Source: Candidatus Tectimicrobiota bacterium (lineage in GTDB: Bacteria; JACPUC01). From it: DNA of 64,000 bases. Shown in pieces: positions 40,531 through 64,000 of the stretch. The notes under the pieces are model-generated. The model was not told the origin of the DNA. It worked only from the letters and a program-made list of their open reading frames with translations, and made no database searches. Each line of letters opens with the position of its first letter. Within the stretch, counting starts at the first letter, position 1. Location of the stretch: contig JACPUC010000002.1 in the NCBI GenBank assembly GCA_016192455.1, positions 1 through 64,000 on the forward strand, in the 5' to 3' direction. The position numbers and the translations under genes were made by a program.

Positions 40531-40735
40531 GACGACACCGAGTGGGGAAAGCAGGCGCTCCCCTGGAGCACCCCGGCGTGGAGCGCAAGGGTGCGCCTCA
40601 CATCGCGGCGCTGCGTCCTCCATGGTACACCAACCGCCGAGCCAGAGGCAGCCCGTGGGCTCGGCTGCAACGACAAAAGCTCCAGGCCGCACCCGACCTG
40701 GAGCTCTTGGAGGAAGACCTGCTGTTGGAGGCCCG

Positions 40736-43400: not shown

Positions 43401-43444
43401 CTTGCATCCCTTCTCTATGGCTGGTCGTTCACGCGCTTTTGTCG

Positions 43445-44365: not shown

Positions 44366-44811
44366 GCGTCGCGGCAGCGCTGGTGGCTCGACCAGCCGCT
44401 GATTGAAGAGGTGTTCCGCATCCCCCGCTCCTTGGGGTCCCGGAAGTGCACTCTTCTTATCGACAGATGCGGCGGAATCTTAAGATTGAGATGCGCCGGC
44501 GCGGCCGGGGCCGGGGAAAAAACAGCGGCAAGCAGGGCGGGATGTATATTGAGTGGGTGGGCCGTCCCCCGCCCGGCGCGTCCGAGGCGGTGCGAGGCTT
44601 CGGGACGCGGGTTCTGCGCCCGGCCCCGGGGGAGGGCTGGCCGCTGGGCGCTCCTCCCTGCCTCTGCCGGCGCGGTAGACGGCTGCTCCCCAGTGGAGAC
44701 CGCCCCCGGAAGAGCGGCAGCGCCCGGCGCGAGGCGCGGGGGATCGCCACCCTACGACGTTCGCCGTTGGCGTTGATCCGCAGTGTAGCCAAGGAAGACA
44801 GGAGGAAACGT

Positions 44812-45576: not shown

Positions 45577-45649
45577 CGGGGGAGGGCGGGTGCGGGGGGG
45601 CAAGGAGTCCCCCCCAAGAGTCTTGTGCGGCGACGTGCTGCGAGGAACC

Positions 45650-47071: not shown

Positions 47072-47206
47072 GGCTCTCCTGGTTTCCAACGGTTGTGGTG
47101 GGCCTCGCCGGCGCGGGGAAGGGAGGGGAATCGGCAGGGCGCCAGGGCTGCGCCGCGGCTCGTGCTGTACGGCCCGCGCGCGGCCCTCCGGGCGGGCGAG
47201 GGTCGG

Positions 47207-48238: not shown

Positions 48239-48248
48239 GGCCCAGCCC

Positions 48249-49793
48249 TCACCCTGCTTGCCGCGCGGCGAGAATGGTTGCGGCGAGGCGCCCCAGCTCG
48301 GCCAGCGGCTCGCTGCGCTCCTCGCGCGTGCGCATGTTGCGCAGCCGCACCGTCGCGGCGCGCAGCTCATCCTCGCCGACGATGCAGGCGAACGGCACGC
48401 CGCTCTTGTTGGCGTAGCTGAGGCTCGATTTCAACGTGCGCTCCTTGATCTCCAGCTCCACCCGCAGGCCCGACCCCCGCAGCAGCTCGGCGAGGCGCGC
48501 GGCTTCCCCGCCGACGGCGCGGCCGATGGGGATGACGAGGAGATCGGGGCCCTCGCTGCGCGCCAGCGGCAGCTCCTCCGCTTCCAGCGCCAGGAGGAGA
48601 CGCTCCAGCCCAAAGGAGAAGCCGCACGCGGGCACCGCCTCATCGCCGCCCAGCACCGCCACCAGGTCGTCGTAGCGCCCGCCGCCGCAGAGCTCATCCT
48701 CGCGCCCCAGGGCTTCGTGCTGAATTTCAAAGATGACCCCCGTGTAGTACTGGATGCCGCGGCCGAAGCTCAGGTCGATGCTGAGCTGCTCCTCCGGCAC
48801 CTCATAGGCCCGCAGGGTTTCGACGAGACGCTGCAGGTCCTCCAACGGCTGCTGCGGCAGGGCGAACTTCTCCAGCAGCTTGCCGATGTCGGTGAAGACC
48901 TCCGGCGGTTGTCCTTTGATGAGGGCGAGCTCGGCCAGGAAATCCACCGCCCGCTGCACCTGCGCCTGGTGCTCCTCGTGGCGCATCTTGCCGAGGAGTC
49001 GGGCCGCCACCTGGCGGGCGTCGCGCGACTGCCGCGGCTGCACGTTCATCATCGCCAGCAGGCGCTCGATGAGCGCCGCCGCCTCCTCCGGCCGCGCCTC
49101 GAGGAGGGGGCGGAGGATGTCGTTGTGGGGTTCGGCGGGCGCCGCGCCGGCGGGGATGATCTCCAGGTCGTGCAGCGCCTGCTTGATCGACTCGATCCCC
49201 AGGTGCGGCTTGCCGAGGTTCTCCATGCTCTCGATGAAGAAACTGCGGGCCCGCTCGCTCAAACGCAGGTTGGTGAGCAGGGCCAGCATGACGCCGACGT
49301 GCCCCAGACGCACCGTCAGCCGCCGCAGCCCGAGGGCCTGCAACCCCTTGCAGGCCAGGGCGATGATCTCCGCATCAGCGGCGGGTCCGGCAGCGCCGAG
49401 GAGCTCCACGCCGATGTGGGTGAACTGGCGGTGGCGGCCCCGCTGCGGCTGTTCGTAACGGAAGGCCGGGCCACAGTACTGCAGGCGGACCGGGAGCGGC
49501 GCGTGGCGCAGGGCGTTGACGTAGACCCGCACCACCGACGCCGTCAGCTCCGGCCGCAGGCAGAGGCGCCGCCGGGCGAAGTCCTGGAAGGTGTAGAGCT
49601 TCGAGATGATGCCGCCGCCGGACTTGCGCAGGTGCAGCTCGGCGTGCTCGAGGATCGGCGGCTCCACGCCGCGGTAACCGTACGACGCAAAGAGGCGGCT
49701 GAGCTGCTCGCGCACCGCGACGTGCTGGGCGTAGCTCTCCGGCAGCAGGTCCAGAGTTCCCTTCACGCGTTCGATGGGACGTTGTCGGTCCAT
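48249..49793 (-). CDS. hisZ: HisZ / HisS paralogue (ATP-PRT regulatory subunit-like) that retains an anticodon-binding domain
   Basis: KGTLDLLP, LRPELTASV, FRYEQPQRGRHRQFTH, YYTG, GGGRYD, GFSFGLERL; directly upstream of hisG. Confidence 0.7.
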   Translation of the reverse strand: MDRQRPIERVKGTLDLLPESYAQHVAVREQLSRLFASYGYRGVEPPILEHAELHLRKSGGGIISKLYTFQDFARRRLCLRPELTASVVRVYVNALRHAPLPVRLQYCGPAFRYEQPQRGRHRQFTHIGVELLGAAGPAADAEIIALACKGLQALGLRRLTVRLGHVGVMLALLTNLRLSERARSFFIESMENLGKPHLGIESIKQALHDLEIIPAGAAPAEPHNDILRPLLEARPEEAAALIERLLAMMNVQPRQSRDARQVAARLLGKMRHEEHQAQVQRAVDFLAELALIKGQPPEVFTDIGKLLEKFALPQQPLEDLQRLVETLRAYEVPEEQLSIDLSFGRGIQYYTGVIFEIQHEALGREDELCGGGRYDDLVAVLGGDEAVPACGFSFGLERLLLALEAEELPLARSEGPDLLVIPIGRAVGGEAARLAELLRGSGLRVELEIKERTLKSSLSYANKSGVPFACIVGEDELRAATVRLRNMRTREERSEPLAELGRLAATILAARQAG

Positions 49794-49851
49794 GCAGAGC
49801 GGCTCCGCGGTGTCTGCGTCGGCGTCTGAGGAAGGGCGTCGGCGAGGGGTG

Positions 49852-50361
49852 TCACGACTCCTCCGGCGGCGCCTCCTCAGCGAAACGGCGCGGCCCCAGC
49901 TTCAACACCAGCAAGGCGAGGCAGAGCGCCATGCCCAGCCCCGACTCGGGAAGTTGCAGGCGGGTCTTCAGGAGGGGGATGAGCTCTAGCAGGAGCTGCC
50001 GTTCAGCCGCCTCGCCGCCATCGAAAGGGTGCCGCGCCAGCAGGCTGCGCACGGCGCCCTGGACGGTGCCCCGCACGCGCGACCAGTAGTCCAGCCCAGT
50101 TTCCTGAAAATCGTCCTCATCCAGGTAGAGGTGCGCCGCCGTCTCGATGTTCCAGTGCCACTGGTAGCCGAGGGAGATGACCAGCCCAAGCTCGCGCGTG
50201 ATCCCGGCGCGAATCTCTTCGAACGCCCCGCCGTAGGGCGTCTCCGCCAGCCAGTCAGCGAAGCGCCGCAGTTCCTCCGGCCGCACCTGGGTGGTGGCGT
50301 AGGTCAGCCCGTAGCTCCTCGCCAGGTACTCCTCGTACTGCGCGCGCAGGGCCGGGTCCAC
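49852..50361 (-). CDS. Hypothetical protein
   Basis: 169-aa ORF with GAGGGAGGGAG RBS before GTG; first gene of the his run; no family recognised. Confidence 0.6.
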   Translation of the reverse strand: MDPALRAQYEEYLARSYGLTYATTQVRPEELRRFADWLAETPYGGAFEEIRAGITRELGLVISLGYQWHWNIETAAHLYLDEDDFQETGLDYWSRVRGTVQGAVRSLLARHPFDGGEAAERQLLLELIPLLKTRLQLPESGLGMALCLALLVLKLGPRRFAEEAPPEES

Positions 50362-50415
50362 AAGTGCCGCTCTCCCTCCCTCGTCTTCCGCGCCGCCGGT
50401 TGCAATTACCTTACG

Positions 50416-50444
50416 ATTATGATTCGTACCGTCGCAGAGGACAA
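50416..50444 (-). promoter_or_regulatory. Putative sigma70 promoter of the hypothetical-hisZ-hisG-hisS run
   Basis: Minus strand TTGTCC-N17-CATAAT. Confidence 0.4.
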
Positions 50445-50581
50445 GTCCCCGCCCGTCGGCGGAGGGCGCGCGGCGCTGGGGGGCAGCATTGCGGACAGCA
50501 CCGTCAGACGCTCAACCCCGGTCGTCCACGACCCGTGGGGCAGCCGAGGGCCTTGCGCCAGACCCGCTTCGGAGGCAGGAC

Positions 50582-51883
50582 GTGCGGTTCGAGCGTTTCA
50601 TCCTCGCCGGGCTGGTCTTCCTGTTGCCGGTCATGGCGCGCTGGCCGTTCAACCTCGTCCTCAACGCCACCCTGGCGCAGAAGATCGAACCGGTCGATCT
50701 CTTCTTCGCCCTCACGTTCCCAATCTGGCTGCTGCGGGCCTGCCGGTCGGACCGGCGCGCCGTCAGGTTGCCTCCGGGCTCGATCGTCCTGGCGGCATTC
50801 CTCTGCGGGGCCGCCCTCTCCGCGCTCCTGGCGCCCGACGTGGGCGCCGCGCTCCTCGAGGTGGCCGGCTTCCTCTACGTCGCGTTCTTCTACCTCTTCC
50901 TCTTCAACCTGCTGCGGCGGGAGGAGGAGCGACGCTTCGCCGTCGATGCGTTCCTCCTCAGCGCCTGCGCCGTGCTCCTCATCGGGGCGGCGGGGATCAT
51001 CGCCTATCGCGTCGCCGGGGTCGAGTCCTTCGCCATTGCGCGCGCCGCCACCTACGCGCAGCCCGTCGGCGAGGTCGTCACCCGGGCCCGCGCCACGTTC
51101 TCGGGGGAGAACCTCTTCTTCGTCTACGGCCTGCTGGCGGCGGCGCTGTCGCTGCCGCGCCTCGCCGGCGCCGGCGGTTGGGTGCGCGCGGCGGCCCGGG
51201 CGAACGTGGCGCTCATGGCGATCATCGCCGTCAGCGCACCCTATCGCGGCGCCTTCATCTTTTGGGGGCTTTGCACCATAGCCCTCTGGGACGCCGGGCG
51301 ACGGTGGTGGCGGAAGGCGCTCCTCGGCCTAACGGCGCTCCTCTTCCTCGCAACCCTCGGTCTCAGCATCGTGCAGGCGCGCGTCCAGCTCTTCCCCGCG
51401 CGGCTGGCAGCGGACCGCGACAGCGGGCAGATCAGTCTCACCCTTTCGAGACGCGACGCTTTCTACTACCTCCTGCACCGTGGGGCGGTGCGCATGTTCC
51501 TCGAGGCGCCGCTCCTGGGCGTCGGCCCTGGGAGGTTCAACGCGATGATCCGTCAGGAGCGCTACGGCGCCGCAGCCGGCCTGGGCGGCCTCGACCCGCA
51601 CAGCACCTACTTCGGCGCCCTGGCGGAGAGCGGCCTTGTGGGGGCGCTGCCGCTCTTCCTCTTCTACGCCGCGATCCTCGTCCTGCTCTTGCGGCTGGCT
51701 CGCCGCGCAGCCGCGCCGGGCGCCCCCTGGAGGATGCTGCTCGCCTGCTACGTCCTCCTCCTCGTCTATGCCGTCTACATTGACCTCACCACCATGCGCG
51801 TCCTCTGGTTCATCTATGCCCTCATCGCGGCGGCGGCACGGTTCGAGGGCGAGCCGTCTGGAGTGGAGCAGCCACCGGACTAA
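50582..51883 (+). CDS. O-antigen ligase/Wzy_C-family membrane protein
   Basis: Many TM segments, RARATF..EN, PLLGVGPG.F, DPHSTYF..LAESGLVG; start uncertain. Confidence 0.8.
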   Translation: MRFERFILAGLVFLLPVMARWPFNLVLNATLAQKIEPVDLFFALTFPIWLLRACRSDRRAVRLPPGSIVLAAFLCGAALSALLAPDVGAALLEVAGFLYVAFFYLFLFNLLRREEERRFAVDAFLLSACAVLLIGAAGIIAYRVAGVESFAIARAATYAQPVGEVVTRARATFSGENLFFVYGLLAAALSLPRLAGAGGWVRAAARANVALMAIIAVSAPYRGAFIFWGLCTIALWDAGRRWWRKALLGLTALLFLATLGLSIVQARVQLFPARLAADRDSGQISLTLSRRDAFYYLLHRGAVRMFLEAPLLGVGPGRFNAMIRQERYGAAAGLGGLDPHSTYFGALAESGLVGALPLFLFYAAILVLLLRLARRAAAPGAPWRMLLACYVLLLVYAVYIDLTTMRVLWFIYALIAAAARFEGEPSGVEQPPD

Positions 51884-51915
51884 GGACGCCGGAGGACCTG
51901 GAGCGCTTTCTTGGG

Positions 51916-54216
51916 CTAGTCGGACGCCCGCCCCTCCGCCACGAGGCGGGCCACCTTGGGGGGATGCAGGGGGATCTCGCGGATGCGAACGCCGAAGGGG
52001 CCCAGGGCGTCCTCGACGGCCGCGGCAAGCACTCCCAGCGCGGCGATCGTCCCCGCCTCGCCGGCGCCCTTGGTGCCGAGGGGGTTCCAGGGTGACGGCG
52101 TCTCCTGGTGCAGGGTCTCGACGCGGGGCACCTCCAGCGCCGCCGGCATGGGGTAGTCCATGAACGAGCCGACCAGCGCCTGGCCGTTTTCGTCGAAGTA
52201 CATCTCCTCGAAGAGCGCCTCGCCGATGCCGTGCGCCACGCCGCCCTGCACCTGCCCCTCGACGATGAGCGGGTTGAGCACCGTGCCGCAGTCGTGCACG
52301 GTGGCGTAGCGCAGCACCCGCACGTGCCCCGTCTGCGGGTCCACCTCGACGATCGCGGCGGTCGAGCTGCTTGCCCAGGACTCGGCGGCCCCCTCGAAGC
52401 GCTCCGTTGCCTCGAGGCGACGATCAGCCCGGCGGGCGATGGCGGCGAGGTCTTGCAGGCTGACGCCGCGGGCGCTGCTGCCGCGCACCGAGACGCCGCC
52501 GCCACCCACTTCGAGGTCCGCCGCGTCCACCTCCAGGTGCTCCGCCGCCAGCTCCTTGAGGCGCCGCAGGAGCGTCTGGGCGGCCATGAAGGTGGCGTTG
52601 GCGCCAAGGATGGCGACGCGGCTGCCGAAGGTGCCGACGCCGTCCGGCACCCCATCGGTGTCCCCCAGACCGACGCGGATGCCTTCGGGAGGCACGCCGA
52701 AGACATCCGCGACCACCTGCGCCAAGCTGGTGCCGATCCCCTGCCCCTGGGAGGGTGAGCCGCAGTGCAGACGCAGGCCGCCGGCGTCGTCGAGCTCGAC
52801 GCGGGAGGTCTCCGACAGGCCGGCGCCCGTCGGCTCGACGCACATCGTCATGCCGAGGCCGCGGTAAACGGCGCCCTGCCGCAGGCGCGCCTGCTCGGCG
52901 CGGAACGCCGGCACGTCGAGGTGGCGGCGCAGCGTGTCGAGGAGCGCCGGGTAGTTGCCGCTGTCGTAGCGGATGGGGGCGCCGGCGACCGTCTTCAGGC
53001 CGGTGTCGTAGGGGAACTCGTGGGGTTGGATAAGGTTGCGCGCGCGCACCTCGAGCGGGTCGAGACCGAGCTCGGCGGCCGCGAAGTCGAGGAGGCGCTC
53101 GATGACGAAGTTCGCCTGCGGACGGCCCGCGCCGCGCACCGGACAGAGCGGCACCCGCGTGGTGTAGACGTGCGTGCCCTGAATGTCATAGGCCGGGATG
53201 TGGTAGCTGTTGAGGAGCGACATGGCGACGCGGTTCGGCGTCACCACGCTCATGGCGGCATAGGCCCCGGCTTCACTGAGGTAGTGGTCGCGCAAGCCGA
53301 GGAGAGTGCCGTCGCGGCGCACCGCAAGCTCCGCGTCGTGAAGCTGCAAGGTCTCCTGGAAGGTGCCGACGAAGTGCTCGTGGCGGTCCTCGACGAACTT
53401 CACGGCTCGCCGCAGGCGACGCGCCAGGTAGGGGACAAGGACATCCTCGGGGTAGAATCCCCCCTTGACGCCGAAGCCGCCCCCCACATCCGGGGCGATG
53501 ACGTGGATCTGCTCGACAGGCAGATCGAGCATGACGGCGAGCTTGGCGCGAAAACCGTGGGGCATCTGGGCGGAGGGCCAGACGGTGAGGCGCTGGCTGT
53601 CGGCATCGAAGGAGGCGACGAGGCCGCGCGTCTCCATCGGCATGCCGGAGGAGCACTTGATCCTGAAACGCTCGCGGATGACGAGGTCCGCCGCCGCGGC
53701 CGCCGCCGCGAAGTCCCCCCGCCGCTGCACCACGCGGGTGCAGAGGTTGGAGGGGTGGCGCTCATGGATGCGCGGCGTTGTCGGATCGAGCGCCTGCTCG
53801 AGGTCGATGACCGCCGGGAGCGGCTCGTACTCCACAACGATCTGCTCGACCGCGTCCTCGGCGAGGTAGCGCGACTCCGCCGCCACGCAGGCGATCGGTT
53901 CGCCGACGTAGCGCACCTTCTCTCGCGCCAGCGGCAGCAAGTTGGCGGGCTGCTCGACCGGGAAAGGAGTGAACATCGGCAGCTCGCGCGTGATCTCGGG
54001 GATGTCCTTGGCGCAGAGCGCCGCCGCCACGCCGGTGACGCGCCGCGCCGCCGCGACATCGACGCGCCGCAAGAGGGCGTGCGCGTGCGTGCTGCGCAGC
54101 ACCGCCAGGTGCAGCATGCCGTCGAAGGACAGGTCGGCCGCGTAGCAGCCCTGACCGGTGAGGAGCCGCGGGTCTTCCAGGCGTTTCAGGGCGGCGCCGA
54201 CGTAGCGCTGGGTCAT
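51916..54216 (-). CDS. Xanthine dehydrogenase-family molybdopterin-binding subunit (CoxL-like, not form I CODH)
   Basis: REKVRYVGEP, APDVGGGFGVKG, PVRGAGRP, QGQG..T, GTFGSR, QVQGG..HG, KGAGE; AAAGGAG RBS. Confidence 0.92.
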   Translation of the reverse strand: MTQRYVGAALKRLEDPRLLTGQGCYAADLSFDGMLHLAVLRSTHAHALLRRVDVAAARRVTGVAAALCAKDIPEITRELPMFTPFPVEQPANLLPLAREKVRYVGEPIACVAAESRYLAEDAVEQIVVEYEPLPAVIDLEQALDPTTPRIHERHPSNLCTRVVQRRGDFAAAAAAADLVIRERFRIKCSSGMPMETRGLVASFDADSQRLTVWPSAQMPHGFRAKLAVMLDLPVEQIHVIAPDVGGGFGVKGGFYPEDVLVPYLARRLRRAVKFVEDRHEHFVGTFQETLQLHDAELAVRRDGTLLGLRDHYLSEAGAYAAMSVVTPNRVAMSLLNSYHIPAYDIQGTHVYTTRVPLCPVRGAGRPQANFVIERLLDFAAAELGLDPLEVRARNLIQPHEFPYDTGLKTVAGAPIRYDSGNYPALLDTLRRHLDVPAFRAEQARLRQGAVYRGLGMTMCVEPTGAGLSETSRVELDDAGGLRLHCGSPSQGQGIGTSLAQVVADVFGVPPEGIRVGLGDTDGVPDGVGTFGSRVAILGANATFMAAQTLLRRLKELAAEHLEVDAADLEVGGGGVSVRGSSARGVSLQDLAAIARRADRRLEATERFEGAAESWASSSTAAIVEVDPQTGHVRVLRYATVHDCGTVLNPLIVEGQVQGGVAHGIGEALFEEMYFDENGQALVGSFMDYPMPAALEVPRVETLHQETPSPWNPLGTKGAGEAGTIAALGVLAAAVEDALGPFGVRIREIPLHPPKVARLVAEGRASD

Positions 54217-54376
54217 GCAGGTCTCCTTTCCGCGGTGCGTCGCGTGGCGGAGGAGCAGGCGCCGGCTGAGCCCCACGACGGGCTGCGTCGCCTCTCCCGT
54301 TGCTCGCGGGCGCTGCCGAAGGGGCGCGAGACCCCGCGGCAGCGTAGAGACTTGGCTTCCCCGCCGCGGCAGGGTG

Positions 54377-54405
54377 AGTATAGGGTTCGCGCCAGGGTCA
54401 ATCAA
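54377..54405 (-). promoter_or_regulatory. Putative sigma70 promoter of the Mo-subunit gene
   Basis: Minus strand TTGATT-N17-TATACT. Confidence 0.5.
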
Positions 54406-54472
54406 CCGCGCGCCTCTGCGCCGCGCCGGGGAGGGGGCGGGAAAGGCGGCCCCGCGGGGGGTGAGGGGGTGA

Positions 54473-54502
54473 TTGACAGCCTCGACGTGCGCGCCGTAAG
54501 AT
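54473..54502 (+). promoter_or_regulatory. Putative sigma70 promoter of the grdE-grdB unit
   Basis: TTGACA-N18-TAAGAT, back-to-back with the minus-strand promoter. Confidence 0.6.
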
Positions 54503-54621
54503 TGGGCAACTCAACGAGCTGCGGTTCCCGCCGAGCCCGCTGCCGGATGGCCCGTCCCGCCTCCGGGTGACGCGAAGGTTCGCTGCGCCGGCGGTCGCGC
54601 CACCTGCGGGGGTGCCCCTCC

Positions 54622-55920
54622 ATGAGACTTGAGCTGCTCGTCCACCGCATCCGCGATCTGCGCGCCGGTGCGCCGACGCGCCTGGGGGGGGGCGTGCTCA
54701 CGGTTGACACGGCGGCCTTGGGCGAGGCGCTGCGTGCGGCGGCGGGCATCGAGGTGCGCGTCGAGCTGGCGCGACCAGGCGAGTCGGTGCGCCTGAGCAA
54801 CGTGCTCGACCTGATCGAGCCGCGCTGCAAGGATGACGCCGGCGGCGCCTACTTCGCCGGCTTCCATGCCCCGCTCCAGGTGGCGGGGAGCGGCGGCACG
54901 CACGTGCTGGAGGGGCTTGCCGTCGTCGAGACGGGGGCGCTGCGCGGCCTCATCGGCGGCGTCATCGACCTCTCCGGGGCTGCGGCCAGGCTCACGCCGT
55001 TCGGCAGCCTGCATCACGTTGTCCTGGAGACGGCCCCCAGGGCGGGGATGGACAAGACCTCCTACGCCGCCGCCATCCGCCGCGCCGGCCTCGAAGCGGC
55101 TTGCCTTCTGGCCCGCGCCTGCCGCAGCGCCGCGCCGGACGAGCGGCGGACCTACGATCTCTCCCTCACCGCCGAGGGGTCCGCATCCTCGCTCCCCGCC
55201 GCCGGGGCCGACGGGGCGCCACGCCTGCCGCGCATCGCGTACGTGTGCATGCTCCATGCCCTCGGCGACACGCGGGAATCGTACCTCTACGGCCAGCGGG
55301 TGCGCGACTTCACCCCGACCCTGCTGCATCCCAACGAGGTCCTTGATGGGGCCGTGGTCTCGCACCACTACGATATCTCCCCCGGCATGAAGAACACCAC
55401 TTACACCTTCCAGAACCATCCGGTGATCCGCGACCTCTATGCCCGGCATGGCCGCGACCTCATCTTCGCCGGCGTGGTGGCGGCCAATCAGCCGGTGCGC
55501 CTGGAGGACAAGGAGTGTTCCGCCTTCATGACGGCGCGCCTCTCGGCCCACCTGCTGCGCGCCGACGGCGTCATCATCACCAAGGAGGGGGCAGGCGCGG
55601 GCGACTACGACCTCATGCGGCAGTGCCAGGCGCACGAGGCGATGGGGGTGAGGACGGTCCTCATTGATAACGAGCAGATCAACGCCAGCGGCATCGGCGA
55701 AATGCCGCTCATCGACGTGACCCCGTACGCCGAGGCGATGGTCAGCACCGGCAACGTCGAGGAGCTCGTCCACCTGCCGGAGGTTGCGCGGGTGCTCGGG
55801 GGCGACACGATGGTGAACGTGCCGGGCTCGCTGCGCGGGCCGCTACGCCTGGAGTCGATCGTCATCCCCGGCGCCAACAGCACGCTCGGCCTTACGTCCA
55901 TGGCGACCGCCCACGTCTAG
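54622..55920 (+). CDS. grdE: Glycine/sarcosine/betaine reductase component B accessory subunit (GrdE/GrdI-like)
   Basis: MRLEL, LARPGESVR..NVLDLIEPRCK, G.THVL, LPRIAYV, PTLLHPNEVLDGAVVS, KNTTYTFQNHP, ADGVIITKEG, MVSTGN. Confidence 0.85.
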   Translation: MRLELLVHRIRDLRAGAPTRLGGGVLTVDTAALGEALRAAAGIEVRVELARPGESVRLSNVLDLIEPRCKDDAGGAYFAGFHAPLQVAGSGGTHVLEGLAVVETGALRGLIGGVIDLSGAAARLTPFGSLHHVVLETAPRAGMDKTSYAAAIRRAGLEAACLLARACRSAAPDERRTYDLSLTAEGSASSLPAAGADGAPRLPRIAYVCMLHALGDTRESYLYGQRVRDFTPTLLHPNEVLDGAVVSHHYDISPGMKNTTYTFQNHPVIRDLYARHGRDLIFAGVVAANQPVRLEDKECSAFMTARLSAHLLRADGVIITKEGAGAGDYDLMRQCQAHEAMGVRTVLIDNEQINASGIGEMPLIDVTPYAEAMVSTGNVEELVHLPEVARVLGGDTMVNVPGSLRGPLRLESIVIPGANSTLGLTSMATAHV

Positions 55921-56055
55921 GCCGCGGAGCGGCCCGACGCAGCCCGGCGGCCGGGGGGGGCCGCGGTGGGCGCGATGGATGGCCGCAACCTCCTCCGCCA
56001 TGCGTCGTGTTTCTCCTCCGCGTGCGAGGGGAGCGAGTGCTCTGAAGGGGCTGGT

Positions 56056-57402
56056 ATGGTCGAGCCATTGCGTGTCGTGCACTACCTCAATCAGTTCTTC
56101 GGGCAGATCGGCGGCGAGGAGAAGGCGGACGCAGCGCCGCGCCTGCACCAGGGCCCGCTCGGACCGGGGCTGCTCCTCCAGGAACGGCTTGGAGAGCGGG
56201 GCAGGGTGGTCGCCACCGTCATCTGCGGCGACAATTACGCGGCGGAGCGTCAGGAGACCGCCGGCGAGGTGCTGGCCCTGCTGCGGGGGCTGGAGTTCGA
56301 CGCCTTTGTGGCGGGTCCCGCGTTCAACGCCGGGCGGTACGGCCTGGCCTGCGGCAGCCTCTGCGCGGCGGTGCGGGAGGCGCGCGGGGTGCCCTGCGTG
56401 ACCGGCATGTTTGCCGAGAACCCAGCGGTGGAGCAGTTCCGCCGCCGCGCCTACATCGTGCGCAGCGGCTCCACGGCGAGGGAGATGGCGCAGGCCATGG
56501 AGGCGGTGACGGCGCTGCTCCTGAAGCTCGCCGCGGCGCCGGACGAGACCGGGGTGCAGGCTGGCGGCCTCGCCGTCTCGCCGGAAGCTGATGGCTACTT
56601 TCCGCAGGGGCGCACGGTGAACGTCGTCGGCGATCGCCTTGCCGCCGCGCGCGCCGTGGAGATGCTCCTCGCCAGAGTGCAGGGGCGGCCGTTCCACACC
56701 GAGATCCCCCTGCCCGCGCCGGGGCGCGTGCCGCCGGCGCCGGCGCTGCGGGAACTGCGCGGCGCCTGTCTGGCGCTGGTGACGGAGGGAGGGCTGGTGC
56801 CGGCGGGCAACCCCGATGGCCTCGTGGGGGCGCGGGCGAGCAGCTATCGCGCTTACAGCATCGCGGGGCTCGGGTCGCTCCGGGCCGGGGCCTACGAGTC
56901 GGTGCACCGCGGCTTCGACACCTCGGCGGTGAACGCCGATCCGAACCGCATCGTGCCGCTCGACGCGGCGCGCCAGCTCGAAGCCGAGGGGGTGTTCGGC
57001 AAGCTCCACGAGACCTACTATGTCACCTCCGGCTGCGCCACCTGGATCGAGAGCAGTCAGGCGATGGCCGCCGGCATTGCCGCGGAGCTGCGCCGAAACG
57101 GCGTGGACGGAGTCATCCTCACCGCGACGTGAGGCACCGGGGTGCGCTGCGGGGCAGCGATGGCACGTGAGCTGGAGCGGCAGGGCATTCCCACGGCGCT
57201 CGTCGCCACCCTCGTCTCCACGGCGCTGACGGTGGGGGCGAACCGCATCGTTGTGGGGACCGGCATCCAGCATCCGCTCGGCAACCCGAAGCTCAGCGCC
57301 GAGGAGGAGCGCCGCCAGCGCCGCAGGCTCCTGGAGTGCGCGCTCCAGAGCCTGACGACGGACCTCCAGGAACAACGGGTCTTCGAGGCCGCGGCGGCCT
57401 GA
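56056..57402 (+). CDS. grdB: Glycine/betaine reductase selenoprotein B-like; in-frame TGA (Sec) at 57130-57132
   Basis: RVVHYLNQFFGQIGGEEKAD, ICGDNY, AGPAFNAGRYG.ACG, LVTEGG.VP.GNPD, NADPNR.VPLD, then VILTAT-TGA-GTGVRCGAAMARELERQGIP...VGANRIV...HPLGNP in the same frame. Confidence 0.92.
57142..57166 (+). promoter_or_regulatory. Candidate SECIS hairpin of grdB
   Basis: CGCTGC-GGG-GCAGCG stem-loop (57145-57159) starting 13 nt after the TGA, extended by GTG/CAC. Confidence 0.65.
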
Positions 57403-57560
57403 GGGGCGGCCGCCCGGCGAAGGCCGGGGTTCGCGGAGTTGCCCCGCGCGGCGCGGCCGGATGCGCTCGGGCGCTGGGGGGCTGGAGCACGTCACGAGAA
57501 CCCTGCGTGAGGCGGCCTCCCCTCCTCGCGCCGTGCAAGGGCAGAAGGAAGCCAGGCGCA

Positions 57561-59132
57561 ATGACTCTCGGAGACCTCCTCCTGGCGAGCGCCCGCAACG
57601 TGCCGCAGAAGACCGCCCTGGTCATGGCAGGGCGCGCGCTCACCTTTGCAAGCTGGAACGAGCGCGCCAACCGCGTGGCCAATGCCCTCCTCGGCCTTGG
57701 GCTGGGGGCGGGCGACCGGGTGTCGATCTACCTGTCGAACTGCCTCGAGTGGGCCGAGGCATACTTCGGCGTGACCAAGAGCGGCGGCATCGTGGCGCCT
57801 GTCAACGCCTGGTTCCGAGAGAAGGAGCTGGGCGTGGTGCTGCGCCATGCGGAGCCCCGCTTTGTCATCACGGAGCGCGCCCTTCTGGGGTATGTGCGCA
57901 AGGTGCGGGAGAACGTCGCCTCCATAGCGCAGGCGGTCATCGTCGACGAGCCGCGCGCCGCCCCACTCACGCGCGGCGAGCTCGACTACCGCGGCCTCCT
58001 CGAGGCCGCCTCGGCCGCCGAGCCCGGGGTGCCGCTCAGCGAGCAGGACGTGCAGGCCATCGTCTACACCTCCGGCACCACGGGGGCGCCGAAGGGTACC
58101 GTCCTGACGCACCTGAACCAGCTCCTAGCCGGCTTCTACATCCTCATGCACGAGTGGGGCCTGCGGCACGAGGACGTCTTCCTGGCCGCCGCCCCCTTCT
58201 GCTTCCGCACCGGCCTGCACCGCCTGCACCTCTGCGCCGGCCTGGGGGGGACGACGCACTACCTCGAGCGCTTCGAAGCGCGGCAGATGCTGAAGGTTGC
58301 CGCCGAGGAGCGGGTGACGGCGCTGGGCGTGGTGCCGACCATGCTCCACAAGCTCCTCGATGTGCTCGAGTCGGAGCCGTACGACCTGCAGGCGCTGCGC
58401 GTCGTCTTCAGCACCTCGGCGCCGCTGCCGCAGGCCGACAAGGAACGCCTGCTGACGCTCTTCCCGCACGTCGAGCTGAACGAGTACTACGCCGCCACCG
58501 AAGGAGGCATCATCAGCAACCTGAAGCCGTGCGATCAACTGCGCAAGCTCAACTGCGTGGGCAAACCGGCCCTGGGCATGCAGGTGCGGCTGCTGGACGA
58601 CATGGGGCGCGACGCGCCGCAGGGCGAGACGGGGGAGATCGCCGTCAGCAGCGGGCCGGGAGGCGGTCCCCTGGTCTTCCGGGAGTACTTCCGCAATCCG
58701 CAGGCCACCGCCGCGGCAATGCGGGGCGACTGGTATTTGTCGGGCGATCTCGGCCGCTTCGACGAGGACGGCTACCTCTATGTCATGGGGCGGAAGAAGG
58801 ACATGATCATCAGCGGCGGGGTGAACATCTTCCCGCGCGACATCGAGGAGCATCTCTGCACGCATCCGAGCGTGCGCGAGGCCGCCGTGGTCGGCGTCCC
58901 CGATGCGCAGTGGGGCGAGATCGTCACGGCGGTGGTGGCCTTGCAGTCCGGGGTGCAGGTGGGCGAGGAGGACCTCATCGCGTACTGCAAGGATGCTCTG
59001 GCCAGCTACAAGAAACCGCGCCGGGTGCTCTTCTGCGAGGAGCTGCCGAAGAACGCCAACGGCAAGATCATGAAGGACGAGCTGCGACAGTCAATCGTCG
59101 GTGCTGCGCGGGCGGAACGCAGGGGCGGGTAG
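57561..59132 (+). CDS. AMP-dependent acyl-CoA synthetase / ligase
   Basis: YTSGTTGAPKG, YAATEGG, SGDLG.FDEDG, GRKKDMIISGG, WGE, LPKNANGK. Confidence 0.93.
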   Translation: MTLGDLLLASARNVPQKTALVMAGRALTFASWNERANRVANALLGLGLGAGDRVSIYLSNCLEWAEAYFGVTKSGGIVAPVNAWFREKELGVVLRHAEPRFVITERALLGYVRKVRENVASIAQAVIVDEPRAAPLTRGELDYRGLLEAASAAEPGVPLSEQDVQAIVYTSGTTGAPKGTVLTHLNQLLAGFYILMHEWGLRHEDVFLAAAPFCFRTGLHRLHLCAGLGGTTHYLERFEARQMLKVAAEERVTALGVVPTMLHKLLDVLESEPYDLQALRVVFSTSAPLPQADKERLLTLFPHVELNEYYAATEGGIISNLKPCDQLRKLNCVGKPALGMQVRLLDDMGRDAPQGETGEIAVSSGPGGGPLVFREYFRNPQATAAAMRGDWYLSGDLGRFDEDGYLYVMGRKKDMIISGGVNIFPRDIEEHLCTHPSVREAAVVGVPDAQWGEIVTAVVALQSGVQVGEEDLIAYCKDALASYKKPRRVLFCEELPKNANGKIMKDELRQSIVGAARAERRGG

Positions 59133-59274
59133 GGGGTGCGCTGGAATCCCCGCCGCGCCGCGTCCCCCATGCGCGCCTCTCTCGCAGCGCTGCCTGGGAG
59201 CCGCGCCGGACCTGCAAACTCAGTGGTGGGAACGAAGGGCGCACGTCTGCCTCCGCCCCCATGGAGGTCTGTTC

Positions 59275-59490
59275 ATGAACGATGTAGAACGCGACTATCT
59301 CCGCTATTCCCTTGACCAGACTATCGAGACGCTCCAGGACATTCGAGAGCGCCTCATCACCGAGGATTACAATGAGGACTACGACATCACCGGGATGGTG
59401 GCGACCGTGAACAGTTTCCGCTGGGAGGTGGAGGCCTTCCTCGAAGAATTCAGCGCCAGCGCCGACGATGCGCAGGATGAAGCTGATTGA
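59275..59490 (+). CDS. Small acidic hypothetical protein (71 aa)
   Basis: GGAGG RBS before ATG; MNDVERDYLRYSLDQTIETLQDIRERL...EEFSASADDAQDEAD. Confidence 0.65.
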   Translation: MNDVERDYLRYSLDQTIETLQDIRERLITEDYNEDYDITGMVATVNSFRWEVEAFLEEFSASADDAQDEAD

Positions 59491-59667
59491 GCGTGGGAGG
59501 GGCGCCCTGACGTGGGGGGGGCCCGGCGTCGCGAGCGGCGTGAAGTCCGCGCGGCGGGCCGATGCGCCGCCGGGGATGCCGCCGCCGCGTGATTGTTGGT
59601 GGTGGGGGTGCGGCGAGGAGGATGTTGCCGGTGTTGCCGACGAACGTTCCAGAGGGGGAGAGCGCAG

Positions 59668-60102
59668 ATGGGTGAGATCGAAGTGCGGCAACGCATCACG
59701 GCGCCGGCGCTGGACGTCTTCAACTTCATCGCTGATGTCACCACTCATCCGCGCTACGCGGAGTTCTGCAAGCGCATCGAGATCACCTCGGCGCAGCGCC
59801 ACGGCGTCGGCGTCACCTTCACCCAGCTTACCGACCACGGCGACGGGGGGCTCTACGAGGTGCGCTCCCGCATCGCCCGCTGGGAGCCTGGCACGCATGT
59901 GAGCTGGGTGAACACGGATGCCCACGGCACGCCGCAGGTGGAGGTGATCTACGATCTCGTCCAGCACGGCGGCGAGGTCGAGGTGATCCACCGCGTCATC
60001 GGACCGATGCTCGACGACGAGGCCCTTCGTCAACGCTCGTACGACGACAATGTGGTTGAGCTCGCCAATTTGAAGCGGCTCCTGGAGCGGGGTGATCGCT
60101 AG
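59668..60102 (+). CDS. SRPBCC/START-superfamily ligand-binding protein (polyketide cyclase/dehydrase-like)
   Basis: I.APALDVFNFIAD...P, GVG.TF, WEPG..VSW, C-terminal helix LANLKRLLE; GGGGGAG RBS. Confidence 0.8.
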   Translation: MGEIEVRQRITAPALDVFNFIADVTTHPRYAEFCKRIEITSAQRHGVGVTFTQLTDHGDGGLYEVRSRIARWEPGTHVSWVNTDAHGTPQVEVIYDLVQHGGEVEVIHRVIGPMLDDEALRQRSYDDNVVELANLKRLLERGDR

Positions 60103-60225
60103 GCGCGTCCTGCCTCCTTCATGGCGCATCGGACCCCTTGCCCCACCATGGTGCGCCCGACGGCGCGAGGGGAGAGAGGTTTAGCCCTCACGCTGTTCTA
60201 ATCATCACGGCGTGGTCCGACGGCC

Positions 60226-60255
60226 TTGACGTAGGAAGCTTTGCGAGAGTACTAT
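60226..60255 (+). promoter_or_regulatory. Putative sigma70 promoter of the UGSC/flavoprotein unit
   Basis: TTGACG-N18-TACTAT. Confidence 0.55.
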
Positions 60256-60439
60256 CGAAGCCTGCCCCGGTCGTGCGCACGGGTACTGCCAGTTCTTCCC
60301 CTGCAGTGCCGTGGATGTGGAAACGCCGCCCCTGAAGATTGGTACGACGAGGTCTGCCGCCGTCGGCCCGCAGCGCCGCGAAGCAGCATTCCCGACTCGT
60401 TGCGCCACGGTTGCACCGTTGCCTCGGAAGGTTGGAAGG

Positions 60440-61462
60440 ATGAGCCAAGCCAGGGGTGTGGCCGCAATCACCGTTGCTTCCCTCGAGGAGGCGCTTGAGA
60501 CCTGTTACGCGCGGGGTTGGACTGATGGTCTGCCCGTGATCCCGCCGACGGAGGGCCGCGTGCAGGGTATGCTTGCGGCGGCGGGGCGCCGGGGCGGCGA
60601 GCTCGTGGCGCACGTCAGCACGCGGCGCTGCAGCATCACCGCGCAGCAAATCGCCGTCAACGCGGTGATGGCGGGCTGCCTGCCGGAGTACTACCCCGTG
60701 GTCGAGACGGCGGTGCGGGCCATCGCCCAGCCGCAGTTTGGCGTGCATGGACCGATCACCAGCACCGCCGGCGCGGCCATCCTGGTGATCGTGCATGGTC
60801 CCATGGCGCGCCGGCTCGGCGTCCGCAGCGGCGGCAACCTCCTGGGGCCCGGGGCGCGCGCCAACGCCACCATCGGCCGGGCCCTGCGCCTGGTGATCCT
60901 CAATGTCCTTGGGGCGCGGGGCGAGCTCGACCGCTCCACGTTCGGCCAGCCGGGGAAGTACACCTCGTGCATTGCCGAGCACGATTCCTCCGGCCCCTGG
61001 CCACCCCTGCACGCCGCCCGCGGGCTGGACCCTGGGTGCAGCGCCGTGACCGTCTTCGCCTGCGAGGCGCAGCACCAGGTGAACGACCACCTGAGCGCCA
61101 CGCCGCAGGGCATCCTCGACACTGTGGCGCGGGTCATGGCCTTGCGCGGGCAGTGTGAGTACCTCCTCGTCTTCGGCGCCGAGCACCTGGCCACGCTGCG
61201 GGCGGCCGGCTGGTCGCGTCAGGATGTGGTGGACTACCTCTGGCGGCAGGCCCGGGCGCCCCTGGCCTACCTGAAGACGCTCATGAAGGTGCCCGGCTCC
61301 ATCGAGCCGGGCGATGGCGAGCAGCTCGTGCGGGTGGTGGAAGAGCCCGGGGACATCATGGTGATGCACGCGGGCGGCGAGGCGGGGCGCTTCTCACTCT
61401 GCTTCTATGGCTGGGCGACGCGCCGGAACTCCCGCGCCGTCACCCTCCCACTCGAGGGGTAA
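60440..61462 (+). CDS. Conserved uncharacterised protein of the family that accompanies UGSC-motif (seleno)proteins
   Basis: GWTDGLPVIPPT, IAVNAVMAGC.PEY, RANATIGRALRL, GQPGKY..CIAE; ends 7 nt before the UGSC gene. Confidence 0.75.
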   Translation: MSQARGVAAITVASLEEALETCYARGWTDGLPVIPPTEGRVQGMLAAAGRRGGELVAHVSTRRCSITAQQIAVNAVMAGCLPEYYPVVETAVRAIAQPQFGVHGPITSTAGAAILVIVHGPMARRLGVRSGGNLLGPGARANATIGRALRLVILNVLGARGELDRSTFGQPGKYTSCIAEHDSSGPWPPLHAARGLDPGCSAVTVFACEAQHQVNDHLSATPQGILDTVARVMALRGQCEYLLVFGAEHLATLRAAGWSRQDVVDYLWRQARAPLAYLKTLMKVPGSIEPGDGEQLVRVVEEPGDIMVMHAGGEAGRFSLCFYGWATRRNSRAVTLPLEG

Positions 61463-61469
61463 TCTGCAC

Positions 61470-62069
61470 ATGGTCCAGCCCTCTGCCGTGGAAGGCGCCT
61501 TTGCGGCGCCGCTCCGCCTCCTGGCGCCGGACGACGTCGGCGAAGCGGAAGCGCTGCCGCTTGCGGCGCGACCGGCGTCGTTCGAGGGGAGGGTGCTTGG
61601 CATCCTCGACAACCGCAAGCACAACTCCGAGCGCCTGCTCCTCGAAGTGGGAGAGCTGCTGCGCCGGCAGTACCGCCTGCGCGATGTCCGCCTGCACAAG
61701 AAGCCGAGCTTCAACGTTGAGGTGAGCCCGGAGCTGCTCCAGGCCATGGTGCAGGAGTGCGACCTGGTGGTCACCGGCATCGGCGACTGAGGGTCGTGCA
61801 GTTCGAGCAGTGTGCTCGACGCCATCCTCTTCGAGCAGGCCGGGGTGCCAAGCGCGGCGATCGTCACCGACGCCTTCGTCCGCACCGGGGCCGCCATTGC
61901 GGCGGCGTGGGGCATGCCCGATTACGGCTTCGCCGTGACCCATCATCCGATCGTGATTCAATCGACTGCGGAACTGGCGCGCTGGGCAACCGAGGTGGTG
62001 CCGCAGGTGCGGGCGATTCTCTCCGGGGAGGCCGCGTCGGGCGGGCGCGAAGGCAACCGAAGGGAGTAG
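61470..62069 (+). CDS. UGSC-motif selenoprotein; in-frame TGA (Sec) at 61788-61790
   Basis: LAARP..FEG..LGILDNRKHNS...CDLVVTGIGD-TGA-GSCSSSSVLDAI.FE.AGVP...TDAF...HHP; the two ORF-track halves are in one frame and give a UxxC motif. Confidence 0.9.
61803..61819 (+). promoter_or_regulatory. Candidate SECIS hairpin of the UGSC gene
   Basis: TCGAGCA-GTG-TGCTCGA perfect 7-bp stem starting 13 nt after the TGA. Confidence 0.65.
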
Positions 62070-62120
62070 GCCGGAGCCGCGGCCGGCCTTGCCAGGCAGG
62101 AGCAGGTCAGGGGAGGGAGC

Positions 62121-63893
62121 ATGCTGCCGAAAGGTGTCGTCGATCAGGAGCTGCGCGTCGATCTCCTCGTCCTCGGCTCTGAGGGGGCCGGCGCCAAGGC
62201 TGCCATTGAAGCGTATGACCTTGGCGTCACCAACAGTGTCATGGTGACGAAGGGGTTCTTCGGCAAGAGCGGCGTGACACTGATGGCGGGCCGTGCCGTG
62301 CAGGCCGCCCTTGGCCATATGGACCCCCATGACAACCCCGAGGTGCACCTGAAAGACACCGTGGAGGTCGGAGGGTACCTGACCAACCAGAAGCTCTCCG
62401 AGCGGCTCGTCACCCTGGCGCTCACCGAGATTCCGAAGCTGGAGACCTGGGGCGCCCGCTTCCAGAAAGAGGGAGACAAGTTCTTCCAGATCCAGTTGCC
62501 CGGCGCCTCCTATCCGCGCTCCTGCACCTCCGCCGTGCAGCAGGGCGGCCTCGAGTGGCGGCGCGCTTACAAGGCGCAGGCGCGCAAACGGCGCCTGCGG
62601 GTGCTGGAGAACGTCTTCGTCACCTCCCTGATGACGAAGGGGGGCCGCGTCTGCGGCGCCACCGCGGTCAACCTCGCCGACGGCCAGTTCTACCTCCTGC
62701 GCGCCAAGGCCGTGGTGCTGGCCTGCGGCGGCGCGACGCAGCTCTTCCCCCATACCGACGCCGCGCTGGAGGCCACCGGCGACGGCATGGCGCTCGCCTA
62801 CCGCGCCGGCTGCGACCTGGTGGACATGGAGTTCCACATGTTCTTCCCGTTCGGCGTGCTCTGGCCGACGGGCTTCCAGGGCCAAATCTGGCCGGCGGAC
62901 TTCCGCTACCGGCTGCGCGCCAAGTTCTACAACAACCTCGGCGAGGAATTCCTCCTGCGCTACCAGCCGGAGTGGGGCAACTGGGGGCTGCGCGACCCGA
63001 CCTCGCAGGCGATCTACCTCGAGAACCTCTACGGGCGCGGCTCGCCGCACGGTGGCGCCTACCTGTCGATCAACCACCTGCCGCGGAACATGATCGACAA
63101 CTTCATCGCCAAGTTCCACCGCAACCGCAAGAAGTGGTACTGGACGAAGCTGCAGCAGCTTGGCGTGGACCTGCGCACTGATGCCATCGAGGTGGGGCCG
63201 GTCTCCCACTACACCATGGGCGGTGTGCGCGTGGATGAGTGCTGCCGCACCACGCTGCAAGGCCTCTTCGCTGCCGGCGAGGTGGCGGGAGGGATGGACG
63301 GTGCCGAGCGCCTCGACGGCGGCCCGGCGATCACCTGGACCCAGACCATGGGACTAATCTGCGCCCAGGAGAGTGCCGCCCACCTGCAAGGCGCCGAGCT
63401 GCCGGAGATTGATGCGCAGCAGGTGCGGGAGGCCCGCGAGCGGGCCTACCAGCCGCTGGCGCGCTCCGAAGGTCCGCGAGGTTACGAGGCGAAGCGGCTC
63501 GTCAAACAGCTCATGGGCGCCGCCTGCACCTTCGTGCGCGACGAGGCGCGCCTGCGGGAGGGCTTGGCGCGGCTGGCGCGCCTGCGGGAAGAGGTGCTGC
63601 CGCGGCTCTCCGCCAATCCGACGCGCCGCTACAACCGGGACTGGGTGCACGCCCTTGAGGCGCAGAACCTTGCCGATGTTGCCGAGCTGGTGCTGCATGC
63701 GGCGCTCACCCGGCGCGAGAGCCGCAAGGCGCATTTCCGCTCGGACTTCCCGAAGGAAGACCCGGCGTGGATCAAGAACGTCATCCTGCGGCGGGGGGGA
63801 GATGGGCGGCTGGAGGTCCAGATCGTCGATCCGGTGATGACGAAAGTGTTTCCCCCGGTGACCACTCCGTCCGGCCGCGATGGTTCAGCATGA
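62121..63893 (+). CDS. FAD-dependent oxidoreductase, SdhA/FrdA/NadB/AprA superfamily flavoprotein subunit
   Basis: DLLVLGSEGAG, AKAVVLACGG, TGDGMALAYRAG, HYTMGG, GLFAAGE, RRESRKAHFRSDFP. Confidence 0.88.
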   Translation: MLPKGVVDQELRVDLLVLGSEGAGAKAAIEAYDLGVTNSVMVTKGFFGKSGVTLMAGRAVQAALGHMDPHDNPEVHLKDTVEVGGYLTNQKLSERLVTLALTEIPKLETWGARFQKEGDKFFQIQLPGASYPRSCTSAVQQGGLEWRRAYKAQARKRRLRVLENVFVTSLMTKGGRVCGATAVNLADGQFYLLRAKAVVLACGGATQLFPHTDAALEATGDGMALAYRAGCDLVDMEFHMFFPFGVLWPTGFQGQIWPADFRYRLRAKFYNNLGEEFLLRYQPEWGNWGLRDPTSQAIYLENLYGRGSPHGGAYLSINHLPRNMIDNFIAKFHRNRKKWYWTKLQQLGVDLRTDAIEVGPVSHYTMGGVRVDECCRTTLQGLFAAGEVAGGMDGAERLDGGPAITWTQTMGLICAQESAAHLQGAELPEIDAQQVREARERAYQPLARSEGPRGYEAKRLVKQLMGAACTFVRDEARLREGLARLARLREEVLPRLSANPTRRYNRDWVHALEAQNLADVAELVLHAALTRRESRKAHFRSDFPKEDPAWIKNVILRRGGDGRLEVQIVDPVMTKVFPPVTTPSGRDGSA

Positions 63894-63914
63894 GAACCGC
63901 CAGAGGGCGATGAG

Positions 63915-64000
63915 ATGATGGGGAAGATGGGGAAAGAATCAGCTCGCAGCTCCAGTTCTGAAGGCACGGTCGAAGTGTTTCGTTTCGATCCCAAGGTCGA
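63915..64000 (+). CDS. Probable SdhB/FrdB-type iron-sulfur subunit, 5' fragment
   Basis: Frame reads ...GTVEVFRFDPKV directly after the flavoprotein, typical of SdhB/FrdB N-termini; truncated by the window end. Confidence 0.6.
   Translation, partial: MMGKMGKESARSSSSEGTVEVFRFDPKV

Follow-up and report, generated by a model that had tools for sequence, protein, structure and literature searches.

Two selenoprotein genes lie 4.07 kb apart on the same strand of contig JACPUC010000002.1 of Candidatus Tectimicrobiota bacterium (GCA_016192455.1; positions 1..64,000, the whole stretch analysed, are called the window here), and they raise the question whether the two selenocysteine (Sec) proteins, a GrdB-like selenoprotein B and a UGSC protein, are relatives and whether they work together. 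A first-pass annotation of this DNA had described a gapless residue signature around both Sec with complementary cysteines, had proposed UGSC as a standalone relative of the catalytic domain of GrdB and PrdB, and had suggested that both proteins share one redox centre or pass a covalent intermediate between them. We regard it as rather probable that homologous Sec domains are found here in two separate enzymes. The kinship hints at the chemistry of UGSC, which has been without an assigned function for nearly 20 years, and the copies in the window most likely work with different partners and have no common active site.

Kinship of the two Sec domains

The family comparison was based on 122 near full-length and unfused UGSC sequences, taken from 14 + 150 search matches, and on 84 GrdB-like sequences, 81 from 80 genome loci (one frameshifted row was dropped) and three being the full-length paralogues of this genome. 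The profile-profile comparison for which the first-pass annotation had called gave a significant match across the Sec region: UGSC aligned by hhalign with the C-terminal domain of the 84 GrdB-like sequences at a probability of 96.7% (E 3.7e-10, score 67.8, 95 gapped columns), with controls below 3% (1.05% for the reversed profile, 2.6% for the best of 30 column shuffles). The 122 UGSC sequences against 50 GrdB sequences reached 94.3% (E 1.1e-7); the first hhalign run, with a UGSC alignment of 15 sequences, was weak (41.7%). The matched stretch comprises helix 2, strand 3, the Sec, helix 3, the E-x-x-G-x-P motif, the distal His-Pro and the last helix.

Reciprocal searches with hidden Markov models (HMMs) point in the same direction. 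All 70 matches of the UGSC HMM at E<=1 among 11,166 six-frame segments were GrdB segments (best 2.6e-7), and the HMM of the GrdB C-terminal domain found 62 of the 122 UGSC sequences at E<=0.1 and none of their 122 reversed copies at E<=1; on the genome it gave four strong matches, all of them GrdB or PrdB-like genes. Furthermore, TIGR01917 was matched by 47 of the 122 UGSC proteins at E<=0.1, and the window UGSC itself gave a weak direct match to the PrdB model TIGR04483 (E 0.026). A single-protein scan of metagenomes found no UGSC relative. PF07355 ends at residue 358, just before the Sec, and therefore Pfam draws no link between the families. In the accessible text of the UGSC papers PMC2398784, PMC1976440, PMC13188914 and PMC9312934 we found no statement on a link between UGSC and GrdB.

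The AlphaFold2 model of UGSC (predicted local distance difference test score, pLDDT, 92.4) alternates strand and helix five times, with a helix between every strand pair and the Sec directly after strand 3 (strands E, helices H: E42-47 H53-68 E72-77 H87-96 E99-105 U107 H108-123 E128-133 H134-146 E155-157 H166-185). The whole GrdB model has a pLDDT of 83.6 and a predicted template modelling score (pTM) of 0.55. Its C-terminal domain is predicted to contain, compared by the order of elements, the same five beta-alpha units (E238-243 H302-310 E316-323 H331-347 E352-357 U359 H363-375 E380-384 H387-393 E397-400 H415-433); after its strand 1 it carries an insertion, ahead of helix 1, that UGSC does not have. 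The fold search with UGSC returned generic doubly wound alpha/beta domains (best Z among the matches listed 10.8, root-mean-square deviation 3.0, 129 residues aligned) and, among the matches listed, no thioredoxin-fold chain; the search with GrdB was dominated by its N-terminal domain. Solved sequence relatives were none for GrdB and ribosomal-L2 noise only for UGSC. In the thioredoxin fold the redox motif follows the first core strand, and the C-terminal part is a beta-beta-alpha hairpin; the predicted order of elements in UGSC does not appear to fit this definition.

Taken together, the profiles and the predicted fold lead us to conclude that UGSC and the C-terminal domain of GrdB and PrdB share descent from one alpha/beta domain with the Sec between strand 3 and helix 3. 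Of the earlier proposal, the kinship stands by profile-profile comparison, reciprocal HMM searches and predicted order of secondary structure, but the word standalone does not, as UGSC is nearly always found with, or fused to, a partner of 340 residues. The N-terminal domain of GrdB (56056-56550, residues 1-165) also has a predicted beta-alpha order as in its C-terminal domain, in register at strand 3-helix 3, and by hhalign matched neither UGSC (5.0%) nor the C-terminal domain of GrdB (6.7%) significantly; an ancient internal duplication in GrdB is possible.

At the level of the two window proteins, the ten shared positions counted from Sec as 0 (G+1, A+11, E+15, G+18, I/V+19, P+20, T/S+21, A+22, V/I+24 and T+26) are present as first described, and within 0..+26 GrdB has Cys at +6 only and UGSC at +3 only. 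The signature is gapless from Sec to +26 but not upstream, where the Asp stands at -8 in GrdB and at -9 in UGSC; beyond +26 the family alignment needs more gaps and then resumes at the common His-Pro and the final helix. From Sec through +26 there are 8/27 identities, Sec counted. The BLOSUM62 score of 27 for +1..+26 was matched by 41 (UGSC as query) and 95 (GrdB as query) of 1,013,095 ungapped windows from the likely open reading frames (ORFs) of this genome. Such a score is unlikely for a Sec-anchored pair, yet a database search would not single out this pair by itself. Moreover, A+11 does not hold at the level of the families, where Ala is found in 58 of 122 UGSC and 26 of 84 GrdB sequences.

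Cysteine patterns and the hairpin behind the Sec codon

Both in-frame TGA codons very probably encode selenocysteine, because the genome carries selA and selB (over cut-offs) together with a tRNA-Sec, and a covarying candidate selenocysteine insertion sequence (SECIS) hairpin follows each codon. Nearly all genomic copies of UGSC contain one TGA. Both hairpins begin 13 nt after the TGA, have a loop that starts with G and fit the bacterial SECIS model as laid out in the accessible text of PMC13188914. In GrdB 99.4% of the stem cells are paired over 85 distinct loci (permutation maximum 96.3%), with compensatory changes at pairs 18-28 and 19-27, and in UGSC 87% are paired over 66 TGA loci (1000 permutations <=75%, shifted registers 20-50%), the permutation controls ignoring kinship in both cases. 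The support comes from covariation alone, since the folding energy compared with shuffles gives none for either hairpin (z between -0.23 and 0.68).

This has consequences for the reading of the cysteines. Because the +6 codon sits in the SECIS stem in both families, the difference between Cys+6 and Ser+6 stems at least in part from the RNA, although protein-level covariation is also possible. Where Cys+6 of GrdB has changed to Ser, the Ala+8 codon shows a compensating change, and Cys+6 of UGSC goes with His+9 in 14/15 cases, the His+9 codon providing the pairing base. The residues +5 to +9 after Sec encode the SECIS stem and cannot, for that reason, be read as purely protein-level signals, which should be considered in annotation.

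The canonical GrdB motif is UxxCxxC (PMC6778437 and PMC13188914, as far as their accessible text goes). It was found in 51 of the 81 GrdB-like sequences from the 80 genome loci, 26 others are without Cys+3 and four are without both cysteines (L023:5335, L032:4594, L043:11036 and L052:11039, with the SECIS stem kept by compensating changes). In the full set of 84, Cys+3 is missing from 33, all three full-length paralogues of this genome among them. On a quick tree a single change (support 63) accounts for the loss of Cys+3, and the sequences concerned come from many phyla. It is closely tied to the neighbouring GrdE: the CxxxC that forms the pyruvoyl group is missing from 29 of 30 GrdE proteins in Cys+3-less loci versus 2 of 43 in the others (one more row was unclassified). 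UGSC has Cys+3 in 117 of 122 sequences and the full +3/+6 pair in 25 of 122. Each protein thus shows the ordinary state of its own subfamily, and the window GrdB is without Cys+3 because its whole subfamily is. The idea that Cys+6 of GrdB and Cys+3 of UGSC complement each other finds no support in these counts: the loss is subfamily-wide, 25 UGSC proteins carry both cysteines, four GrdB-like proteins carry neither, and position +6 is encoded within the SECIS stem of both families.

The Cys+3-less GrdB genes form an intact and widespread subfamily, a point of importance for annotation; one genome paper termed a B component without UxxCxxC a likely pseudogene (PMC6778437). Genomes with a Cys+3-less GrdB, which are drafts classed by the GrdB fetched from them, contain GrdA in 24/27 and GrdC in 22/27 cases over the cut-off but GrdD in 2/27; GrdD is found in 32/52 genomes with a UxxCxxC GrdB, and several non-clostridial ones of these are also without it. 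In the present genome grdC-grdA lies on another contig (C1, 114814-116851, minus), where the genome encodes its one GrdA that passes the family cut-off, and GrdD has no match in this genome, which is 88% complete. This suggests an output without GrdD, perhaps acyl-CoA instead of acetyl phosphate, with the scarcity of GrdD being confounded by phylum and draft quality.

Partners, proposed mechanisms and rival readings

The partner encoded directly upstream of UGSC matches no Pfam or NCBIfam family, nor the profiles of GrdE, of both GrdB domains or of UGSC; it is probably what Zhang and Gladyshev (2008) termed 'Unknown_1'. This genome has UGSC and partner genes in three copies each, paired on contigs C5, C7 and C9 (2.9 kb apart on C9), and the two pairs outside the window are on contigs without GrdB. 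Both the GrdB and the UGSC family are expanded in this genome. Neighbourhoods were read from metagenome loci: 121 pattern matches yielded a list of 79 loci, of which 70 hold UGSC. The partner is within 500 nt of UGSC in 59 of these 70 and GrdB in one; in the 11 loci that extend 4 kb to either side of UGSC, ten have the partner and one has GrdB. No PrdB or GrdE/PrdA-type gene stands beside UGSC as a rule in these loci. Conversely, UGSC or the partner occurs in none of the 80 GrdB loci, and 22 of 28 Cys+3-less loci reach at least 5 kb downstream. Where a genome has both UGSC and GrdB (ten cases), the genes are on different contigs or more than 100 kb apart. The draft genomes G022 and G013 contain 30 and 13 UGSC matches, respectively, many in frames of 550-650 aa that resemble partner fusions. 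This gene order shows the pairing, and UGSC and the 340-aa partner probably form a two-part selenoenzyme. Two divergent UGSC-like genes were also seen (L120:1-572, minus, and L118:1498-3200), one with Sec and no Cys+3 (W-U-S-G-A), the other partner-fused with Met at the Sec position.

How might the two enzymes act? By family membership the GrdE-like and GrdB-like proteins would together make up a non-pyruvoyl protein B like that of betaine and fluoroacetate reductases. Following the chemistry of glycine reductase and FarEB (accessible text of PMC10298544 and PMC10838667), the selenolate of Sec359 would attack an already polarised carbon, and the resulting selenoether would pass from protein B to the GrdA and GrdC encoded on the other contig. 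By homology, Sec107 of UGSC is most likely the nucleophile on a substrate held together with the partner; Cys110 may then resolve the Sec107 adduct to a selenenylsulfide, to be reduced by a thiol system, for which the UxxC of PrdB, as proposed for proline reductase, offers a precedent. Next to glycine and proline reductase, UGSC and its partner could represent a third branch of reductases that use Sec as the nucleophile, a possibility that we take seriously without yet calling it probable. Placing UGSC with the Sec domain of GrdB and PrdB shifts the assay to a selenoether adduct with the partner, not to disulfide exchange alone.

Several observations weigh against homologous domains in two separate enzymes. 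The match spans about 95 of the 199 UGSC residues and leaves the first 85 residues with strands 1-2 unaligned; a PrdB-like profile is weak against UGSC by hhalign (53.5% and 37.8%), and the window's own UGSC reaches only E 4.4 with the HMM of the GrdB C-terminal domain. The alpha/beta fold is common, as the best Z of 10.8 among the matches listed indicates, and the models were compared by element order only. UGSC keeps Asp-1 (117/122) and Asp+10 (116/122), both of which are missing from GrdB, and therefore the chemistry may differ. With regard to separateness, one metagenome locus, L149, has a UGSC pair between Grd genes, and UGSC passes the cut-off in 9 of 27 genomes with a Cys+3-less GrdB versus 1 of 52 others (Fisher p 1.8e-4, kinship ignored); one further genome of the 27 has a divergent copy under the cut-off. 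This enrichment favours some ecological or metabolic link, yet it corresponds to one event on the tree.

The strongest rival accepts the homology, yet instead of a nucleophile that attacks carbon it sees in UGSC a simple thiol/disulfide oxidoreductase or peroxidase that serves the partner. It draws on the conserved UxxC-type motif (Cys+3 in 117/122), on the fairly conserved Cys80 of the partner (48/56), on the missing GrdB insertion between strand 1 and helix 1, and on the protective redox role with which the cysteines of GrdB are credited in the accessible text of PMC6778437 and PMC10838667. However, the partner cysteine is not invariant, 5/122 UGSC proteins are without Cys+3, and up to 30 paralogous copies in one genome suggest many substrates. 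We hold a plain redox role to be less likely than not, but a strong rival.

It is distinctly unlikely, though compatible with the claim of no direct contact in our favoured reading, that both enzymes belong to one catabolic pathway with the ligase, the SRPBCC protein and the flavoprotein and handle successive intermediates without touching each other. Nine genes from 54622 to 64298 on one strand, with intergenic gaps of 7-337 nt, would fit such a pathway, as would the expansion of both families in this genome. But this gene arrangement does not recur in the loci examined, the largest gap, ahead of the UGSC partner, contains a sigma-70-like site, and neither of the genome's two further UGSC pairs shares its contig with a GrdB gene.

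A closer link appears very improbable in the form that UGSC and its partner are the downstream acceptor or reductant for the non-pyruvoyl, Cys+3-less protein B, a covalent intermediate moving from Sec359 to Sec107, from one homologous domain to the other, in a Grd-type pathway with GrdC and no GrdD that feeds CoA chemistry. Hardly credible, too, is the completion of one UxxCxxC centre in trans by GrdB (Cys+6) and UGSC (Cys+3), or the replacement of GrdA by UGSC as acceptor of the covalent intermediate of GrdB. The proximity of the two genes on one strand, the absence of grdA beside the window grdB, with the only GrdA over the cut-off on another contig, and the enrichment of UGSC in Cys+3-less genomes invite such a reading, and so does L149 (one of the 11 that extend 4 kb to either side), in which the UGSC pair lies near two GrdB genes, one readable as Cys+3-less. 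Nevertheless, L149 is ridden with frameshifts and its Grd genes are on the strand opposite to the UGSC pair, 18 of the 27 Cys+3-less draft genomes are without UGSC over the cut-off and 24 of them have GrdA, the 80 GrdB loci are without UGSC or partner, the ten genomes with both keep them far apart or on separate contigs, the enrichment hangs on a single change in the tree, four GrdB-like proteins are without both cysteines, and 25/122 UGSC proteins have both. The suggestion of one redox centre or a passed intermediate is not supported, given the ordinary cysteine patterns of the subfamilies, the conserved partner that each protein has of its own, and genes that are almost never neighbours elsewhere.

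Finally, convergence of unrelated families on a common beta-alpha-beta motif with an E-x-x-G-I-P strand, which could appeal to a common fold (many matches at Z 8-11), to the lack of alignment over the first 85 residues and to pairwise hhalign E-values that are not calibrated on a database, is already largely refuted, as the HMMs single out GrdB/PrdB proteins only among thousands of unrelated segments, Sec, Gly+1, Cys+3, E-x-x-G-x-P, distal His-Pro and last helix are all in register, and the SECIS stem begins at the same nucleotide in both families.

The locus and its relation to known systems

Features of the window around the two selenoprotein genes.
Feature	Position	Strand	Remark
GrdE-like subunit, glycine/betaine/sarcosine-reductase-family protein B	54622..55920	+	PF09338 E 4.1e-109
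GrdB-like selenoprotein B, 448 aa, U359, motif U-G-T-G-V-R-C	56056..57402	+	PF07355 E 1.9e-126
In-frame TGA, very probably Sec359 of GrdB	57130..57132	+	TGA at this column in 84/84 aligned GrdB-like sequences
Candidate SECIS of GrdB, 6-bp stem, GGG loop 18 nt past TGA	57145..57159	+	Cys+6 codon in 5' arm
Acyl-CoA ligase, between GrdB and UGSC partner	57561..59132	+	PF00501, PF13193
Acidic ORF, 71 aa, no family, intervening	59275..59490	+	profile scans without match
SRPBCC/polyketide-cyclase-like protein, intervening	59668..60102	+	PF10604 at cut-off
Sigma-70-like consensus, candidate for a promoter of its own, in the gap of 337 nt ahead of the UGSC partner	60226..60255	+	consensus match only
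Unnamed UGSC partner, 340 aa, W-x-D-G-L-P family	60440..61462	+	ends 7 nt upstream of UGSC
UGSC selenoprotein, 199 aa, U107, motif G-D-U-G-S-C (Cys+3, Ser+6)	61470..62069	+	PF24696 E 8e-54
In-frame TGA, very probably Sec107 of UGSC	61788..61790	+	Cys at this column in 119/122 database sequences
Candidate SECIS of UGSC, 7-bp stem, GUG loop 19 nt past TGA	61803..61819	+	+6 codon in 5' arm
Fumarate-reductase/succinate-dehydrogenase-like flavoprotein	62121..63893	+	PF00890, PF02910; under all equivalog cut-offs
Small Cys-rich, Fe-S-type ORF after the flavoprotein	from 63915, to 64298 on contig C5	+	ORF list

The assignment of the window GrdB to its subfamily is clear from TIGR01918 (464 bits vs cut-off 65) and from the PF09338 gene 135 nt upstream, but it stays under the equivalog cut-offs (TIGR01917 for GrdB 411 vs 602, GrdF 449 vs 800, GrdH 433 vs 775 bits), and it is 42-47% identical to its best full-length homologues. 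The window GrdE is below the cut-offs of the GrdG, FarE and PrdA models and has no CxxxC for pyruvoyl autocleavage in residues 242-267, as in the GrdI/FarE type. UGSC is over both curated cut-offs (PF24696 182.8 vs 25 bits, NF041046 132.8 vs 125 bits). The flavoprotein is divergent, its nearest model being TfrA (389 vs cut-off 718); together with the small Cys-rich ORF it could be an electron source for the UGSC pair. Sigma-70-like sites number 4 in 10 kb vs 0.6 in shuffles (consensus match only). Phylum-wide searches returned this genome only, with no near relatives for comparison.

Outside this gene run, the large subunit of a xanthine-dehydrogenase-family molybdoprotein (51916-54216, minus) is divergent from grdE, with promoter-like sites on both strands between them (54377-54502). 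At 45650-49793 (minus), an ATP-phosphoribosyltransferase-like ORF flanked by two histidyl-tRNA-synthetase-like ORFs was recognised from the translations.

Both selenoproteins belong to catalogued families; what is new here is the testing and rejection of complementation, the association of Cys+3 loss with a non-pyruvoyl GrdE, the limits that the SECIS stem sets to position +6, and the finding that few genomes of this subfamily have GrdD. The UGSC-containing protein was named by Zhang and Gladyshev (2008), whose paper in its accessible part (PMC2398784) reports the fusion UGSC/Unknown_1 and 255 sequences in the Global Ocean Sampling (GOS) survey; in metagenomes from aquatic habitats, few selenoprotein families of bacteria are as abundant. 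The window protein agrees with this family in its cut-offs, its G-D-U-G-S-C motif and the adjacent unnamed partner, which resembles that fusion. However, UGSC is labelled as likely thioredoxin (Trx)-like in the same text and stands next to Trx-like proteins in a review of 2026, in contrast to the model obtained here with five beta-alpha units, Sec after strand 3 and a profile tie to GrdB.

PrdB (TIGR04483) is, like UGSC, a single-domain Sec protein with UxxC, but UGSC lies farther from the PrdB-like profile than from GrdB. Two PrdB-like UxxC genes of this genome (C25:22599-23486, minus, and C30 near 51.5 kb, minus) carry U-P-A-C and U-P-V-C, and no PrdA-type gene is among its three PF09338 matches.

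With the GrdB/GrdF/GrdH family (PF07355, TIGR01918) the window GrdB shares its full length and the position beside a GrdE-like gene, and UGSC matches the C-terminal 95 columns of this family. In contrast to canonical glycine reductase, this GrdB is without Cys+3, its GrdE partner is without the pyruvoyl motif, grdA and grdC are encoded elsewhere, and grdD was not found in the 88%-complete genome. There is also a likeness to fluoroacetate reductase FarE/FarB and betaine reductase GrdI/GrdH: in the accessible text of PMC10838667, on Cloacibacillus porcorum, FarB is described as without CxxC, and FarE as without processing cysteines and not made as a proprotein, like the betaine-type GrdI. The E subunit of the window is likewise of the non-proprotein type, and its GrdB, like FarB by the published description, is without CxxC; the differences are the score of the window GrdE with the FarE model (194 vs cut-off 675) and the Cys+6 that the window GrdB keeps.

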